From a virus (Duplodnaviria > Heunggongvirae > Uroviricota > Caudoviricetes): a stretch of 5,682 bases of DNA. A model generated the notes under the pieces. It had not been told where the DNA came from. It searched no databases and worked only from the letters and a program-made list of their open reading frames with translations. Position numbers and translations under genes: made by a program. This document shows positions 1-5,682 of the stretch, piece after piece. The first letter of the stretch is position 1. Each line of letters opens with the position of its first letter. Where the stretch lies: the IMG/VR virus record IMGVR_UViG_2663762945_000009; one strand, given 5' to 3'.

Positions 1-60
1 GCTAAAAGAACCGGAAAAAACAAGGTGATAATTCATTCAAAATAAACACCTTTTTAAAAT

Positions 61-107
61 ACAGCCCCAATAAACTGCAGAATATTATCCCATATAATAT
101 CCTGCAG
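61..107 (-). terminator. Putative rho-independent terminator downstream of the tfa remnant
   Basis: At 75-107, ctgcagaatattatcccatataatatcctgcag gives a ~14-bp stem (one G-U position) with a 5-nt loop. On the - strand it is followed by TTTATT. Stem is AT-rich, so strength is uncertain. Confidence 0.35.
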
Positions 108-118
108 TTCGTAATGCA

Positions 119-214
119 CTATTCGATAATGGGTACTGTTGGCCATTCAATATCCGGTGCAGTTGTTGTATTAACACGGTTCAGCAACACCCGATACTTC
201 TTCCAGGCTTCCAG
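119..214 (-). pseudogene. tfa: Tail fibre assembly protein, C-terminal 31-codon remnant (lambda Tfa-like)
   Basis: The - strand frame encodes [31 protein letters not shown] then a stop at 119-121. This matches the C-terminal motif of lambda Tfa as I recall it, and the same EAW..Y..L..RVDT..P.WP motif closes the intact Tfa at 1515-2042; the convergent copy at 2071-2604 ends differently (KLTEWMLYAQKVESTDTSGLPVTFPEQPE). No N-terminal part is present. Confidence 0.6.
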
Positions 215-444
215 CACCAGCACGACAAGATGCCGCATACAGTGACCCAGTCAGTCCAGTTTCCAGACAACCAGTGCGTCACCTTTTTGAAGGCGCTTTA
301 AAGCACGTTTAATCCAGGTCGGCCTGTCCTTATTCCGCTTAATTTATCTTCAAATATTTGTTCACATCCTGCACAAACAAGAGCGTTTCGTTGCAGGTCT
401 GTATTCTGGTCATTTGTTGATACCCTTACATAGCCAATCAGCAC
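215..444 (-). pseudogene. pin: Serine DNA invertase (Pin/Gin/Hin/Cin family), N-terminal fragment with frameshift and in-frame TGA
   Basis: From GTG at 442-444 the - strand encodes MLIGYVRVSTNDQNTDLQRNALVCAGCEQIFEDKLSGIRTGRPGL (catalytic-serine motif YVRVSTNDQ). A -1 shift near 308-312 then gives KRALKRLQKGDALVVWKLD, an in-frame TGA sits at 251-253, and [12 protein letters not shown] follows. A GGGAGA Shine-Dalgarno lies 6 nt upstream of the GTG. The C-terminal helix-turn-helix domain is absent. Confidence 0.7.
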
Positions 445-498
445 GCTGAATCTCCCGTCCAAAAGCACAAATCATGCCATGCAGGCCAGAAACCGCCA

Positions 499-524
499 TT
501 ATCTAAAACCTCGGTTTACAGGAA
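499..524. other. gix/pix/hix-type inversion crossover site (26 bp, imperfect dyad)
   Basis: TTATCTAAAACCTCGGTTTACAGGAA has the same half-site layout as Gin/Hin sites (TTATC..AAACC / GGTTT..GGAA). It sits between the invertase start and the 5' end of the tail-fibre variable ORF, as gixR does in Mu. Confidence 0.6.
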
Positions 525-548
525 ACGGTAAACAGGGCCAGGAACGCC

Positions 549-1511
549 GTGCAAAAGAATGGCGATACCTTGTCCGGTGGGCTTACTTTTGAAAACGACT
601 CAATCCTTGCCTGGATTAGAAATACTGACTGGGCAAAGATTGGTTTTAAAAATAATGCCGACAGCGACACTGATTCATACATGTGGTTTGAAACAGGCGA
701 CAACGGCAATGAATATTTCAAATGGAGAAGCCGCCAGAGCACCACAACAAAAGACCTGATGACTCTTAAATGGGATGCTTTGTCTGTCCTTGTTAAAGCC
801 CTTTTCAGCAGTGAAGTAAAAATATCGACAGTCAATGCACTGAGGATATTTAATTCATCTTTTGGTGCTATTTTTCGTCGTTCTGAAGAATGCCTGCATA
901 TCATCCCTACACGAGAGAATGAGGGAGAAAATGGTGATATAGGGCCACTACGCCCCTTTACGCTTAATCTCAGAACTGGTCGGATAAGCATGGGGCATGG
1001 TCTTGATGTTACAGGGGATATATTTGCAAACCGTTTTGCAATTAACAGTAGTACCGGCATGTGGATTCATATGCGTGACCAGAATGTTATTTTGGGACGC
1101 AATGCGGTATCCACCGATGGTGCGCAGGCATTACTTCGTCAGGACCACGCTGATCGCAAATTTATGATTGGTGGACTGGGGAATAAGCAATTTGGCATCT
1201 ACATGATTAATAACTCAAGGACAGCCAATGGCACCGATGGTCAGGCGTACATGGACAACAATGGCAACTGGCTTTGCGGTGCGCAAGTTATTCCCGGCAA
1301 TTATGGTAATTTTGACTCACGTTATGTGAGAGATGTCCGACTTGGTACACGTGTTGTTCAGACTATGCAAAAAGGCGTGATGTATGAGAAATCAGGTCAT
1401 GCAATTACGGGGCTTGGCATTATCGGTGCAGTTGATGGCGATGATCCGGCAGTATTCAGACCAATACAAAAATACATCAATGGCACATGGTATAACGTCG
1501 TACAGGTGTAA
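549..1511 (+). CDS. stf: Side tail fibre protein, variable C-terminal (receptor-binding) portion
   Basis: 320-aa ORF with phage tail-fibre motifs (WFETGDNGNEYF; C-terminal RPIQKYINGTWYNV). The frame is open from 507, directly after the gix site. An AGGA lies 5 nt before GTG 549. Stop codon is 3 nt before the tfa start. No constant N-terminal fibre shaft is present upstream. Confidence 0.75.
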   Translation: MQKNGDTLSGGLTFENDSILAWIRNTDWAKIGFKNNADSDTDSYMWFETGDNGNEYFKWRSRQSTTTKDLMTLKWDALSVLVKALFSSEVKISTVNALRIFNSSFGAIFRRSEECLHIIPTRENEGENGDIGPLRPFTLNLRTGRISMGHGLDVTGDIFANRFAINSSTGMWIHMRDQNVILGRNAVSTDGAQALLRQDHADRKFMIGGLGNKQFGIYMINNSRTANGTDGQAYMDNNGNWLCGAQVIPGNYGNFDSRYVRDVRLGTRVVQTMQKGVMYEKSGHAITGLGIIGAVDGDDPAVFRPIQKYINGTWYNVVQV

Positions 1512-1514
1512 TTT

Positions 1515-2042
1515 ATGCAGCATTTAAAAAATATTAAGTCTGGAAATCCAAAAACAAAAGAACAATATCAGCTAACAAAGAATTTTGATGTTATCTGGTT
1601 ATGGTCCGAAGACGGAAAAAACTGGTATGAGGAAGTGAAAAACTTTCAGCCAGACACAATAAAGATTGTTTACGATGCAAATAATATTATTGTCGCCATC
1701 ACCAAAGATGCCTCCACGCTTAACCCTGAAGGTTATAGCGTCGTTGAGGTTCCAGATATTACAGCCAACCGCCGCGCTGATGATTCCGGTAAGTGGATGT
1801 TTAGGGACGGAGCTGTGGTTAAACGGATTTATACGGCAGACGAGCAACAACAACAGGCCGAATCACAAAAGGCCGCATTGCTTTCCGAAGCTGAATCAGT
1901 CATCCAACCGCTGGAACGCGCTGTCAGGCTGAATATGGCAACAGACGAGGAACGCACACGACTGGAAGCATGGGAACGCTACAGTGTTCTGGTCAGCCGT
2001 GTGGATACGGCAAATCCTGAATGGCCACAAAAACCAGAGTAA
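1515..2042 (+). CDS. tfa: Tail fibre assembly protein (Tfa; Mu U / e14 TfaE-like chaperone)
   Basis: 175-aa ORF starting [22 protein letters not shown] and ending [31 protein letters not shown] Shine-Dalgarno 6 nt upstream. Tightly coupled to the preceding stf. Confidence 0.85.
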
Positions 2043-2070
2043 AAATTAAGGCCCGATAGCGGGCCTTCTC
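2043..2070. terminator. Bidirectional hairpin terminator between the convergent tfa genes
   Basis: Stem aaggcccg / cgggcctt with loop atag at 2048-2067. On the - strand it is followed by AATTTTTA; the + strand tail is weaker. Confidence 0.45.
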
Positions 2071-2604
2071 TCATTCTGGTTGTTCGGGAAACGTTACTGG
2101 CAGGCCGGAAGTGTCTGTAGATTCGACTTTCTGCGCATAGAGCATCCACTCGGTTAATTTTTGTTTATTCTCGTCGGAAATGATGCCCAGCCGTAGCTGT
2201 GAGTCCCATAGCTGGGTTTTATCCCTGACAAGTTGCAACAGGCTTTGCTTTTCATTTTCCGCTTGTTGCCTCTGCTCTTCCTCGGTATAAGTTCGCTTTA
2301 TCACTACGCCATCTTTGAACATCCATTTCCCCGAAATATCAGCCCGGCGATTTGCTGTAATATCAGGTAATTCAACGACGCTTGCACCCTCTGGATTAAT
2401 TGCTGAAACATCCTTTTCAATACAAATAATAACGCCGTTATGGTCATAGACCATTTTCAAAGTGTCTGGCTGGAAATTCTTTTGTTCCTCATACCAGTTT
2501 TTTCCATCATCTGAATAAAGCCATTTGATGTTAAATTGCTTTGTTAGCTGGTATTGCTCTTTTGTTTTAGGGTTGCCAGCAGTAATGTTTTTTAAGTGCA
2601 TCAT
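2071..2604 (-). CDS. tfa: Tail fibre assembly protein (second, inverted copy; Mu U'-like)
   Basis: 177-aa [25 protein letters not shown], a paralogue of the + strand Tfa with a diverged C-terminal half. GGGGAG Shine-Dalgarno inside the 3' end of the upstream stf fragment. Confidence 0.85.
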   Translation of the reverse strand: MMHLKNITAGNPKTKEQYQLTKQFNIKWLYSDDGKNWYEEQKNFQPDTLKMVYDHNGVIICIEKDVSAINPEGASVVELPDITANRRADISGKWMFKDGVVIKRTYTEEEQRQQAENEKQSLLQLVRDKTQLWDSQLRLGIISDENKQKLTEWMLYAQKVESTDTSGLPVTFPEQPE

Positions 2605-2606
2605 CG

Positions 2607-2840
2607 TTAAATACTCCCCGCGTTATACCACGTCCCATTAATGCAATACTGAATTGGCCTTGCCTGAGTTGTATCAATTAATTCATCACGGTTTCCGTTA
2701 ACTGAACCCGTAACGACATAACCTGACCTGTCAGACCAGCCGGGGCCTTTCCATGTCTGAACAGATGACAGACCGCCAAGGCGAATACCTGTAATAAACC
2801 TTGAGTTACATTCTGCCTGCGTATATGCACCAACATCTCG
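2607..2840 (-). pseudogene. stf: Side tail fibre protein, second variable tip, truncated to its C-terminal ~75 codons
   Basis: The - strand encodes ...GAYTQAECNSRFITGIRLGGLSSVQTWKGPGWSDRSGYVVTGSVNGNRDELIDTTQARPIQYCINGTWYNAGSI, alignable to the last ~75 aa of the 549-1511 ORF (shared RLG...RPIQ.Y/CINGTWYN). The 5' portion and its expected gix site are replaced by lambda-like sequence. Confidence 0.6.
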
Positions 2841-2888
2841 CCTTTGAAAAAATCCAGATATCCGCCGGAATGGTGCAGAAATGTCGGT

Positions 2889-3164
2889 ATACGGATAACG
2901 GCTACTCCGTGTTTGAGCAGTCACTGCTGCGGTATATCGCTGCCGGGCTGGGTGTCTCGTATGAGCAGCTTTCCCGGAATTACGCCCAGATGAGCTACTC
3001 CACGGCACGGGCCAGTGCGAACGAGTCGTGGGCGTACTTTATGGGGCGGCGAAAATTCGTCGCATCCCGTCAGGCGAGCCAGATGTTTCTGTGCTGGCTG
3101 GAAGAGGCCATCGTTCGCCGCGTGGTGACGTTACCTTCAAAAGCGCGCTTCAGTTTTCAGGAAG
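2889..3164 (+). pseudogene. B: Portal protein B, internal fragment (lambda gpB-like)
   Basis: Encodes TDNGYSVFEQSLLRYIAAGLGVSYEQLSRNYAQMSYSTARASANESWAYFMGRRKFVASRQASQMFLCWLEEAIVRRVVTLPSKARFSFQE, which I recognise as an internal stretch of lambda B. It ends abruptly at 3164. Confidence 0.8.
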
Positions 3165-3688
3165 GCGGCACTGGCAAGCAGCTGACCTGCACTGCAGTTC
3201 ATGTCGTTGGCCAGCGCCCATACCGGTTTTATGTCACGCACACGGGCGATGATGTCAGCGCAGTCAAATGCCCCCGCCACCATCCCGCCGGGCGTGTCCA
3301 TATCGAGCAGAATGCCGTCCACCATCGGATCGCTGGCAGCCTGTTGCAGACGGGCGATAATGCCGTTGTAACCGGTCATCCCCGAGTACGGCTGCAGCGC
3401 CCGCGTCCGGCTGACCAGCGTGCCGGACACCGGCAGCACGGCGATGCCGTTCATGACCTGATAACTGCGGGCCTGTCGTGGTCCGTCATCATCACCGGAT
3501 AATGCCAGCGTCGCGGGTGCCTCCTGGGCAGTCAGGCTGTCGCCGGACACCGCATCCGTCAGGCGGCTGATCCCAAGCTGGCCTGCAAGCGCACAAAAGA
3601 AAACCCGCGCATAGGCGGGTTCAAGCATCAGCGGCTCATTAAAAGCCATGCTGGCAATATGCGGGAGATTACGCAGCTCTGCTGTCAC
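3165..3688 (-). pseudogene. C: Head protease/scaffold protein C (S49 ClpP-like), N-terminal ~173 codons
   Basis: From GTG at 3686-3688 the - strand encodes VTAELRNLPHIASMAFNEPLMLEPAYARVFF...MNCSAGQLLASAA, the lambda gpC N-terminus as I recall it. It overlaps the B stop by ~20 nt as in lambda. Reading continues into unrelated sequence after 3165. Confidence 0.8.
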
Positions 3689-3958
3689 TCTTCTCCTCCT
3701 CTGTTGATTGTCGCAGCCCGGATTCAAATGCTGCAGCCGCCCAGGCGGGCGGTTTAAGACCGGCTGCGCGGCGCTCCATCGTTTCACGGACCTGCTGGGC
3801 AAAAATTTCCTGATAGTCGTCACCGCGTTTCGCGCACTCTTTCTCGTAGGTGCTCAGTCCGGCTTCTATCAGCATCACCGCTTCCTGAACTTCTTTCAGA
3901 CCATCGATGGCCATACGACCGGAGCCTATCCAGTCGCAGTTCCCCCAGGCACTGCGGG
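3669..3958 (-). pseudogene. B: Portal protein B, C-terminal ~95 codons
   Basis: The - strand encodes ARSAWGNCDWIGSGRMAIDGLKEVQEAVMLIEAGLSTYEKECAKRGDDYQEIFAQQVRETMERRAAGLKPPAWAAAAFESGLRQSTEEEKSDSRAA then a stop. This is the direct continuation of the + strand B fragment that ends at 3164, but on the opposite strand. Confidence 0.8.
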
Positions 3959-4154
3959 CTCCCGGCGTCTGGTCACGCAGACCGCCCGGACAGGCTCCAT
4001 CGGCGTCATGATGGCTCACAGTAATTACGGTGCTGCGCTGGAGAAACAGGGTGTGGAAATCACTCTGATTTACAGCGGCAGCCATAAGGTGGATGGCAAC
4101 CCCTACAGCCATCTTCCGGATGACGTCCGGGAGACACTGCAGTCCCGGATGGAC
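3959..4154 (+). pseudogene. C: Protein C, internal fragment continuing from the - strand C fragment
   Basis: Encodes SRRLVTQTARTGSIGVMMAHSNYGAALEKQGVEITLIYSGSHKVDGNPYSHLPDDVRETLQSRMDAT, the residues that follow ...QLLASAA in lambda C. Strand is opposite to the C N-terminal fragment. Confidence 0.75.
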
Positions 4155-4470
4155 GCAACCAGATAAGGGTGTTGCGCTGCTTATGCTCTATGAAGTAGGC
4201 ATAAACACCCAGCAGCATTTTGGAATAACCGACACGGGCAGACTTCACCACATTCACCTCACGGATGTAGTCGCTGCCCATCGCATTCATGATGGCCCGC
4301 TGAAAGGGCAGTGTTTCCCAGCGCCCTTCCTGGTATGCGGATTCTTTCGGGAGATAGTAATTGGCATCCGCCCATTCAACGGCGGTCTGTGGCTCCGGCC
4401 TGAACAGTGAGCGAAGCCCGGCGCGGACAAAATGCCGCAGCCTGTTAACCTGACTGTTCGATATATTCAC
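4155..4470 (-). pseudogene. A: Terminase large subunit A, N-terminal ~105 codons only
   Basis: From GTG at 4468-4470 the - strand encodes MNISNSQVNRLRHFVRAGLRSLFRPEPQTAVEWADANYYLPKESAYQEGRWETLPFQRAIMNAMGSDYIREVNVVKSARVGYSKMLLGVYAYFIEHKQRNTLIWL. It overlaps the Nu1 stop as in lambda. Homology ends at ~4155; this N-terminal piece is the Nu1-interacting region, and the ATPase and nuclease domains are missing. Confidence 0.85.
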
Positions 4471-4990
4471 TCAGCAACCCCGGTATCAGTTCATCCAGCG
4501 CGGCTGCTTTGTTCATGGCTTTGATGATATCCCGTTTCAGGAAATCAACATGTCGGTTTTCCAGTTCCGGAAAACGCCGCTGCACCGACAGGGGGATCCC
4601 GTCGAGAATACTGGCAATTTCACCTGCGATCCGCGACAGCACGAAAGTACAGAATGCGGTTTCCACCACTTCAGCTGAGTCTCTGGCATTCTTCAGTTCC
4701 TGTGCGTCGGCCTGCGCACGCGTAAGTCGATGGCGTTCGTACTCAATAGTCCCTGGCTGGAGATCTGCCTCGCTGGCCTGGCGCAGTTCTTCAACCTCCC
4801 GGCGCAGCTTTTCGTTCTCAATTTCAGCATCCCTTTCGGCATACCATTTTATAACGGCGGCAGAGTCATAAAGCACCTCATTACCCTTGCCACCGCCTCG
4901 CAGAACGGGCATTCCCTGTTCCTGCCAGTTCTGAATGGTACGGATACTCGCACCGAAAATGTCAGCCAGCTGCTTTTTGTTGACTTCCAT
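4445..4990 (-). CDS. Nu1: Terminase small subunit Nu1, full length
   Basis: 181-aa ORF MEVNKKQLADIFGASIRTIQNWQEQGMPVLRGGGKGNEVLYD...SEYIEQSG with intact start and stop. It matches lambda Nu1 as I recall it. It lies immediately downstream (on the - strand) of cosB. Confidence 0.9.
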   Translation of the reverse strand: MEVNKKQLADIFGASIRTIQNWQEQGMPVLRGGGKGNEVLYDSAAVIKWYAERDAEIENEKLRREVEELRQASEADLQPGTIEYERHRLTRAQADAQELKNARDSAEVVETAFCTFVLSRIAGEIASILDGIPLSVQRRFPELENRHVDFLKRDIIKAMNKAAALDELIPGLLSEYIEQSG

Positions 4991-5167
4991 TGTTCATTCC
5001 ACGGCCAAAAACAGAGAAAGGAAACGACAAAGGCCCAAAAGTTCGTTTTCAGCACCTGTCGTTTCCTTTCTTTTCAGGGGGTATTTTAAATAAAAACATT
5101 AAGTTACGACGAAGAAGAACGGAAACGCCTTAAACCGGAAAATTTTCATAAATAGCGAAAACCCGCG
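4991..5167 (-). promoter_or_regulatory. cosB-like terminase-binding region (R-site repeats)
   Basis: Three R-element-like repeats of the cgtttcc(t/g)ttc(t) type at ~5012-5033, ~5054-5071 and ~5110-5126, between cosN and the Nu1 start. This is the layout of lambda cosB. Confidence 0.6.
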
Positions 5168-5179
5168 AGGTCGCCGCCC
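5168..5179. other. cosN cohesive-end sequence (12 nt)
   Basis: aggtcgccgccc is the reverse complement of the lambda 12-nt cohesive end GGGCGGCGACCT. Sequence beyond 5180 resembles the lambda right end (cosQ side), so the two genome ends are joined here as in a prophage or concatemer. Confidence 0.7.
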
Positions 5180-5378
5180 CGTAACCTGTCGGATCGCCGG
5201 AAAGGACCCGAAAAATGATAATGATTATCATCTGCATGTCACAACGTGCATCTACGCCATCAAACCACGTCAAATAATCAATTATGACGCAGGTATCGTA
5301 TTAATTGATCTGCATCAACTTAACGTAAAAACAACTTCAGACAATACAAATCAGCGACACTGAATACGGGACAACCTC

Positions 5379-5612
5379 ATGTCAACGAAGAACAGAACCC
5401 GCAGAACAACAACCCGCAACATCCGCTTTCCTAACCAAATGATTGAACAAATTAACATCGCTCTTGATCAAAAAGGGTCCGGGAATTTCTCAGCCTGGGT
5501 CATTGAAGCCTGCCGCCGGAGACTGTGCTCAGAAAAAAGAGTTTCTCCTGAAGCAAACAAAGAAAAGAGTGACATTACTGAATTGCTCAGAAAACAGATC
5601 AGACCAGATTGA
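5379..5612 (+). CDS. Hypothetical small basic protein (77 aa), possible ribbon-helix-helix DNA-binding fold
   Basis: ORF MSTKNRTRRTTTRNIRFPNQMIEQINIALDQKGSGNFSAWVIEACRRRL... has a basic N-terminus, then a short beta-like segment (NIRFP) and two helix-like segments. Only a weak GGGA Shine-Dalgarno ~7 nt upstream. It lies in sequence resembling the lambda right-end region; whether it is expressed is unknown. Confidence 0.35.
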   Translation: MSTKNRTRRTTTRNIRFPNQMIEQINIALDQKGSGNFSAWVIEACRRRLCSEKRVSPEANKEKSDITELLRKQIRPD

Positions 5613-5682
5613 AGCAATTTAGATAATCGTGCAGACTACGCTCCCTCATATCACATGGAAGGTACTACAATGGCTCAGGTTG

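Follow-up and report, generated by a model that had tools for sequence, protein, structure and literature searches.

Nested inversion and deletion of lambda-type terminase, portal, and protease gene fragments in a defective att-lambda prophage of Escherichia coli

INTRODUCTION

Strains of Escherichia coli B carry a 12.1-kb lambda-B prophage at attB (PMC4395058), and an element of the same type occurs in strain 13C1065T (locus L001 below), a defective prophage of ~12 kb with the order int-xis-IS1-lysis-DUF1398-ynfO-tail fibre-tfa-pin′. DLP12 of K-12 (ylcI-nohD-aaaD′-tfaD) retains nohD, an intact homologue of Nu1, next to cos and ylcI, together with an N-terminal stump of A (the pseudogene aaaD) that has a short overlap to tail-fibre-assembly DNA. 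Two other K-12 prophages, e14 and Qin (aaaE′, beeE, jayE′, stf/tfa/pin), are classic examples of prophage decay, with truncated terminase, portal, and tail genes lying by a Pin-type invertible tail-fibre cassette. Two bodies of work bear on how such loci can be rearranged: the MMBIR/template-switch model, whose source sets out hallmarks of complex microhomology rearrangement (PMC2621351), and reports of spontaneous inversions mediated by short repeats in Salmonella (PMC3411829).

Here we describe a lambdoid locus in which fragments of the head genes A, B, and C alternate in strand over little more than a kilobase. The window, by which we mean the whole 5,682-bp stretch of DNA analysed (IMG/VR record IMGVR_UViG_2663762945_000009), belongs to a prophage that is related to the 12-kb lambda-B element of E. 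coli B (REL606, BL21) but less extensively deleted. With lambda-B and L001 the element shares its site between ybhC and the bio operon, a truncated pin, pix, the stf/tfa cassettes, the dgc cargo, and the cos/ynfO/DUF1398/lysis side. The DLP12 features named above recur in it as well, and the DLP12 A stump ends at lambda 1018, 8 bp from the end at 1026 in the window; however, DLP12 shows a single simple deletion (lambda 1019-22118), has no inverted B/C fragments, and sits at argU. The truncated terminase, portal, and tail genes by a Pin-type cassette are likewise common to e14, Qin, and the window, but the fragments of e14 and Qin are collinear, with no annotated nested inversion, and their pinE and pinQ are full length, in contrast to the 56-codon pin found here.

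RESULTS

We aligned the window to phage lambda (NC_001416) by local BLAST, adding short-word BLAST for tiny islands. Segment E-values range from 1e-102 to 0, which excludes chance matches, and the resulting map contains four strand switches at 98 to 100% identity to lambda. A scramble of A, B, and C fragments had been proposed from the sequence alone; BLAST against lambda confirms it, and Pfam agrees. The segments are as follows.

2835-2857, minus strand: J island of 23 nt, lambda 17969-17947, 22/23 identical, in native orientation relative to Nu1
2858-2890 (unique part 2858-2888), plus strand: internal island of A (terminase), ~33 nt, lambda 2056-2088, by BLAST; inverted relative to Nu1-A′
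2889-3164, plus strand: fragment of portal gene B, codons 346-437, lambda 3872-4147, 100% identical; inverted relative to Nu1-A′
3163-3960 (unique part 3165-3958), minus strand: central B/C piece, lambda 4943-4146, 99.0% identical, in native orientation
3959-4160, plus strand: fragment of protease/scaffold gene C, codons 176-242, lambda 4942-5143, 99.5% identical; inverted relative to Nu1-A′
4155-4470, minus strand: A′, the first 105 codons of the terminase large subunit, lambda 711-1026, by BLAST and Pfam (GpA_ATPase)
4445-4990, minus strand: Nu1 (terminase small subunit, 181 aa), intact, in native orientation, 98.5% identical to lambda
5168-5191, minus strand: cosN, with the lambda ends (1 / 48502) joined at 5179/5180
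5180-5524, minus strand: lambda 48502-48158, by BLAST

Read in the orientation of Nu1, the order is J, inverted A, inverted B, native B/C, inverted C, and native A′-Nu1. Segment order and strands are as the sequence-only reading had them: by BLAST, the B-to-C block runs opposite to Nu1-A′, except for its central ~794 bp, which has returned to native orientation. That piece runs from B codon 438 to the B stop (3669-3671) and then through C codons 1-175 (start at 3688), while window 4155-5179 on the minus strand forms one A/Nu1/cos block corresponding to lambda 1026-1 at 98.5% identity. The left end had been assigned to B, with B reading to FSFQE at 3164; instead, 2858-2888 is the A island and is preceded by the 23-nt J island, both overlooked, and the FSFQE end lies at 3163. 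The earlier deletion estimate stands for most of A and all of W but must be revised for B, where the loss of ~380 codons comes down to 345. No phage, and none of 5,426 complete E. coli genomes, aligns collinearly with the region. Between 2835 and 5179 every base has its counterpart in lambda, and the joints therefore contain no insertion sequence or other mobile element.

The head genes have been reduced accordingly in this map. A keeps 105 of its 641 codons, B is without its first 345, W, D, E, and the tail genes are missing, and A, B, and C persist only as fragments on alternating strands. Pfam matches follow the same divisions: Phage_portal_2 matches the B fragment (E = 5e-16) over the last 54 profile positions only, Peptidase_S49 matches the C fragment at 3959-4154 (E = 1e-17), the central piece has weak matches to Peptidase_S49 and NfeD1b_N, and Phage_Nu1 covers the Nu1 ORF at full length (E = 9e-101). 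Rfam reported no RNA families in the window. Three chimeric ORFs in the ORF list span the joints, and a fourth, of 233 aa (2801-3502, plus strand), has no called-gene record.

3137-3688: chimeric ORF of 183 aa containing C′ (the N-terminal part of the S49 protease)
3669-4112: chimeric ORF of 147 aa, with no Pfam family match
4060-4470: chimeric ORF of 136 aa, A′ running into antisense C

These three frames are open and are called by gene finders, and they lie in a locus where Nu1 and cos are intact, as might be expected had they been domesticated for a host function. We regard that reading as highly improbable. The S49 domain is divided between the strands, one ORF holding profile positions 3-28 and a second holding 26-95, and the 147-aa product is without a Pfam match. 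In 15 billion sequences the exact 183-, 147-, and 136-aa proteins turn up on just 5, 5, and 1 contigs, with no divergence between copies within 2838-4470. None of the fragments can give a working A, B, or C protein, leaving Nu1 and cos as the only intact survivors, and no function is indicated for the scar.

We then resolved the six joints by aligning each to both of its parent sequences.

2835-2837: stf/J joint, 3-bp overlap ATC, where the J island meets the variable C-terminal cassette of stf (joint alignment)
J/A joint and A/B joint: ambiguous overlap of ~0-3 bp each (alignment to both parents)
3163-3164: left crossover of the inner inversion, AG, common to B (lambda 4146-4147) and the reverse complement of C (4943-4942)
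3959-3960: right crossover of the inner inversion, CT, the exact reciprocal of the left crossover
4155-4160: C/A joint, 6-bp GCAACC, lambda 5138-5143 being the reverse complement of 1021-1026

The GCAACC shared by both sides of the C/A joint had already been noticed from the sequence, and the joint alignment recovered it as the overlap at 4155-4160. A second proposed motif fared less well. Copies of GGCACTG do exist near both ends of the inner inversion, but both are on one strand, at 3167-3173 and 3948-3954, 2 to 5 nt inside the piece, and the crossover itself is AG/CT. We considered GGCACTG as the mediating repeat and rejected it: its copies are direct rather than inverted, both within the inverted piece, and a direct repeat could not itself have mediated the inversion. 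The motif is quasi-palindromic and adds only to an imperfect inverted match, in which 8 of 12 positions agree between the two breakpoints (P ~0.004 among random lambda site pairs). An exact run as long as the 6-bp one at the C/A joint occurs in ~0.2 to 0.5% of random lambda site pairs, and similarity at the joints exceeds that of random lambda pairs overall (P ~0.002 to 0.01). The 2-bp overlap is by itself unremarkable, since 45% of site pairs drawn at random contain an exact run of 2 or more within 12 nt. Verified Salmonella inversions have at least ~12 bp of junction homology (PMC3411829), compared with an exact 2 bp within the imperfect 8/12 match here. A repeat scan of the window found no inverted repeats flanking the 794-bp piece and no repeat families at the joints.

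The inner inversion is reciprocal to the base. The lengths of its pieces (276 + 798 + 202 - 4) sum to 1272 nt, exactly lambda 3872-5143, and thus no base was lost or gained. An exchange this clean would be expected of a conservative recombinase or a topoisomerase more than of sloppy end joining. Serine invertases make a conservative exchange with a 2-bp staggered cut, and a flip of the 794-bp piece by a site-specific recombinase, either the neighbouring Pin or a Gin/Hin-family enzyme acting in trans on quasi-sites, would account for a reciprocal exchange whose 2-bp overlap is identical at both sites in inverted orientation. The window also holds a pix site (499-524), and it and the pin remnant lie 2.7 kb from the piece. 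The remaining evidence makes this explanation very improbable. Against pix half-sites taken from L001 and the window, the 26-bp sequences with the two crossovers at their centres score 5/24 and 7/24, whereas the background mean over lambda is 7.3; scores at least as high are reached by 92% and 64% of random lambda positions. The piece has no flanking inverted repeat, a 2-bp overlap arises in 45% of random pairs, and only 56 codons of pin remain (positions 2-54 of the 145 in the Resolvase profile), leaving no functional invertase in cis. The contigs that reach the piece all show it in a single orientation. One pix-like half-site, AGTTTTCAGGAA (lambda 4134-4145), does lie by the left breakpoint; its predicted crossover is 13 bp off, and we set it aside as a coincidence. 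A programmed inversion of the 794-bp piece is therefore largely refuted.

Carriers of the structure were sought by exact look-ups of the chimeric ORFs and by scans for joint-specific strings. Another 11 contigs, drawn from about six separate sources, carry the structure at 99.3 to 100% identity; they include the following.

L007: 37.7-kb scaffold from ENA metagenome ERZ28577164, 99.95% identical over all 5,682 bases
L009 and L011: contigs of NCBI draft GCA_000945895.1
L012: NCBI draft GCA_000938575.1
L010 and L013: Logan ERR738832 and ERR738837
L016 and L017: Logan SRR12495213 and SRR12495212
L005: ENA metagenome assembly ERZ27246823 (MEGAHIT-style contig name)
L018: IMG/VR UViG 2671180828, the sole IMG/VR match, with the full structure

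Each joint is present in every carrier contig that reaches it, and the inner piece has one orientation in all carrier contigs reaching it; most of these were retrieved through joint-spanning ORFs, L018 through the outer joints alone. The copies are identical within 2838-4470, the sole variant being L011 with 24 clustered single-nucleotide differences in Nu1-cos, and the carriers are essentially one clone.

This recurrence bears directly on whether the strand switches could be assembly chimeras, a concern raised by the fact that the window is a whole 5,682-bp contig (CDRC01000534.1, reverse strand) of a fragmented draft (GCA_000939695.1, contig 534). The same joints were recovered across projects and assemblers, in three NCBI drafts, the Logan runs, two ENA metagenome assemblies, and IMG/VR, and an assembler would not be misled by overlaps as short as 2 to 6 bp, so that an artefact is practically out of the question. 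Identical joints in independent assemblies thus answer the doubt about chimeric assembly that accompanied the original observation.

Outside these sources the structure was not found. Whole-scar and joint-spanning queries detected neither the full scar nor any of its joints in 5,426 complete RefSeq E. coli genomes, and scar and joints were also absent from GTDB species representatives and JGI metagenomes. No intermediate with only some of the joints appeared in the 5,426 complete genomes, GTDB representatives, JGI metagenomes, or IMG/VR. A search on the accession numbers of the source assemblies returned no literature. The allele is genuine, inherited, and rare.

One candidate for an un-reinverted intermediate was examined, a C′ protein of 243 aa (C residues 1-242, then Arg and a stop; P0046) found on 28 E. 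coli contigs, and was rejected. Residue 243 of native C is likewise Arg, the P0046 records are labelled "partial," and a common polymorphic site (lambda 5148) follows directly after C codon 243; on these grounds P0046 is best explained as native C truncated at contig ends. Where a genome holds two similar prophages, its assembly would be expected to break at such a site.

The longest carrier places the scar within its element. On one side of L007 lie replication gene P, ninB, dam, ninX, rusA, Q, a porin gene, lysis genes, KilA-N, and DUF1398, followed by cos-Nu1 and the scar; beyond the scar come two opposed tfa/stf cassettes, the truncated pin, the diguanylate-cyclase (dgc) cargo, an attP-arm remnant, and ybhB-bioA-bioB-bioF. 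The remnant (lambda 27471-27742) adjoins ybhB, and the chromosomal flank is 99.15% identical to locus L001 of E. coli strain 13C1065T. The host element is a defective lambdoid prophage at att-lambda, by the bio operon, of an E. coli lineage: it is homologous to lambda and embedded at the att site, and essential morphogenesis genes are missing or broken, such that no virion is possible.

Comparison with L001 separates what is old in this locus from what is particular to it. L001 is 98.6 to 99.5% identical to window 1-2837 and 4967-5682, the left homology ending at 2837, but between these arms it has lost, collinearly, everything from Nu1 codon 8 to the tail fibre except a 25-nt C island. It is without A′, the B/C fragments, and all six window joints, and it retains two things now gone from the window, the N-terminal part of stf (tail-fibre DNA) and a second pix site. 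Since L001 is free of the scar yet keeps DNA lost from the window, the two are independent decay products of a common ancestor. Other sister loci carry independent damage in the same gene block, namely a 145-nt inverted A island (L004) and an inverted cos-Nu1-A block (L002), and close relatives of the right arm (L022) are nearly complete prophages with a normal, collinear Nu1-A-W-B-C...J order.

DISCUSSION

We interpret the locus as an inert decay scar in a defective att-lambda prophage, produced by microhomology-mediated illegitimate recombination through either a series of two inversions and three deletions or a single complex event, and consider this reading probable at roughly 80%. The joints carry overlaps of a few base pairs (3, ~0-3, ~2-3, 2, 2, and 6) with no transposable element or long repeat, as is characteristic of microhomology scars. 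We infer the order and number of events, and their enzymology, as follows. From a normal order of cos-Nu1-A-W-B-C...J-stf, the shortest path would consist of two inversions and three deletions. A deletion running from the stf cassette into J may have come first, followed by a large inversion with ends in J (~17947) and A (~2056) or, equivalently, in C (5143) and A (1026). A second deletion would then have created the C5143/A1026 joint (or the J/A joint, depending on the choice of inversion ends), and a third would have removed lambda 2089-3871, forming the A/B joint. The final step would be the precise reciprocal re-inversion of lambda 4146-4943. The likely chemistry is RecA-independent break-and-join or template switching at microhomology, as opposed to site-specific or homologous recombination, because the joints share ~0 to 6 bp without an insertion sequence or long repeat.

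Five serial events with no surviving intermediate are somewhat unparsimonious, and all six joints might conceivably derive from one replicative event of the MMBIR/FoSTeS type, in which templates were switched serially at a collapsed fork, the polymerase jumping from strand to strand and place to place inside the prophage. The joints are packed into 1.3 kb, with short microhomology, alternating orientations, and tiny templated islands (23 nt from J and 33 nt from A), and in the contigs and genomes searched they always occur together, never singly; similar islands are found at deletion joints in the sister prophages L001 and L004. Clustered breakpoints, short junction homology, mixed deletions and inversions, and short islands are likewise shared with MMBIR-type rearrangements, and features of this kind are hallmarks of MMBIR (PMC2621351). 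Against this stands the exact reciprocity at both ends of the inner inversion, which two independent switches would produce by coincidence, unless the same imperfect repeat guided both. Moreover, the carriers are near-clonal, which makes missing intermediates weak evidence. A single-event origin is therefore a candidate only, and in our view a rather unlikely one.

Whether reached in several steps or in one, a scar left by illegitimate recombination at microhomology is ordinary prophage decay, and the tidy nested inversion is its only curiosity. The locus provides a base-by-base record of how a lambda-like prophage at att-lambda was dismantled through short-homology rearrangements, a record of little biological weight, and it is a clean natural case of microhomology-mediated inversion with a known ancestral sequence. 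For annotation, the 183-, 147-, and 136-aa ORFs should be treated as pseudogene chimeras, and the six unique joints can serve as specific markers for a rare E. coli lineage. If the single-event origin were true, the scar would be a prophage-local bacterial counterpart of the MMBIR/chromoanasynthesis-like events known from human copy-number variants, and a clean natural example in which the "parent" (lambda) is known to the base. For the prophages themselves, it adds one allele to the lambda-B/DLP12 family of cryptic prophages.

Tail-fibre cassette and left end of the window

The left half of the window holds a Pin-type invertible tail-fibre cassette (298-524 and 549-2837) that is now frozen, with the following components.

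298-468, - strand: pin remnant, 56 codons, truncated
499-524: pix site TTATCTAAAACCTCGGTTTACAGGAA, the single copy in the window
549-2042, + strand: first stf-C-terminus/tfa cassette, opposed to the second
2071-2837, - strand: second stf-C-terminus/tfa cassette, opposed to the first

The lambda-B-type prophage at att-lambda in E. coli strain 13C1065T (locus L001) keeps the partner pix site at 9553-9578, whereas the window has it deleted, and the tail-fibre segment is therefore no longer able to flip. Immediately past the truncated pin, 76 nt survive from a tail fibre assembly gene of lambda type (141-216, equivalent to lambda 22535-22460, 95% identical), a remnant that the lambda-B-type loci L001 and L002 also carry. 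Farther left, where the region of the diguanylate-cyclase cargo gene ends, a near-perfect palindrome of 16+16 nt (73-109, AACTGCAGAATATTAT/ATAATATCCTGCAGTT) is possibly a terminator or operator.

Head-gene joints in related prophages

The deletion joints of three sister prophages bear mini-islands and inversions of their own. L001 carries a 25-nt C island (10965-10989, equivalent to window 3405-3429) flanked by tail-fibre and Nu1 remnants, L004 carries an inverted 145-nt A island (8477-8620, lambda 1754-1898) with B 3465 on one side and A 1281 on the other, and in L002 a cos-Nu1-A(1-2224) block (4803-7025) is inverted relative to the lysis genes. In the K-12 cryptic prophage DLP12, the terminase A pseudogene aaaD (L019 7355-7663) stops at lambda 1018, where it is fused to tfa at lambda 22119; the A stump of the window (4155-4470) stops only 8 bp away, at lambda 1026. 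Gene A could have a hot spot for breakage here, or the proximity could be coincidence.

A 243-aa protein record (P0046; NCBI EEW1244876.1 and others), found on 28 E. coli contigs, exactly matches the predicted product of the un-reinverted intermediate, the hypothetical precursor in which the inner 794-bp piece had yet to flip back. These records are probably native C cut off at contig ends, adjoining a polymorphic site at lambda 5148.

Variation and integrity of the Nu1-cos region

Assembly GCA_000945895.1 carries the scar of rearranged head-gene fragments on two contigs. One of them, L011 (CCCJ01002246.1), shows 24 SNPs relative to the window, every one of them within a cluster in Nu1-cos (window-equivalent 4676-5371). 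Either this tract was acquired by recombination with a different lambdoid prophage, or the assembly is mixed or uncollapsed. In the window, Nu1 (181 aa) and cosN/cosB are intact (4445-5191) and the rest of the prophage is dead. In principle, the terminase of a helper lambdoid phage could cut the chromosome at 4445-5191 and package towards the bio operon.
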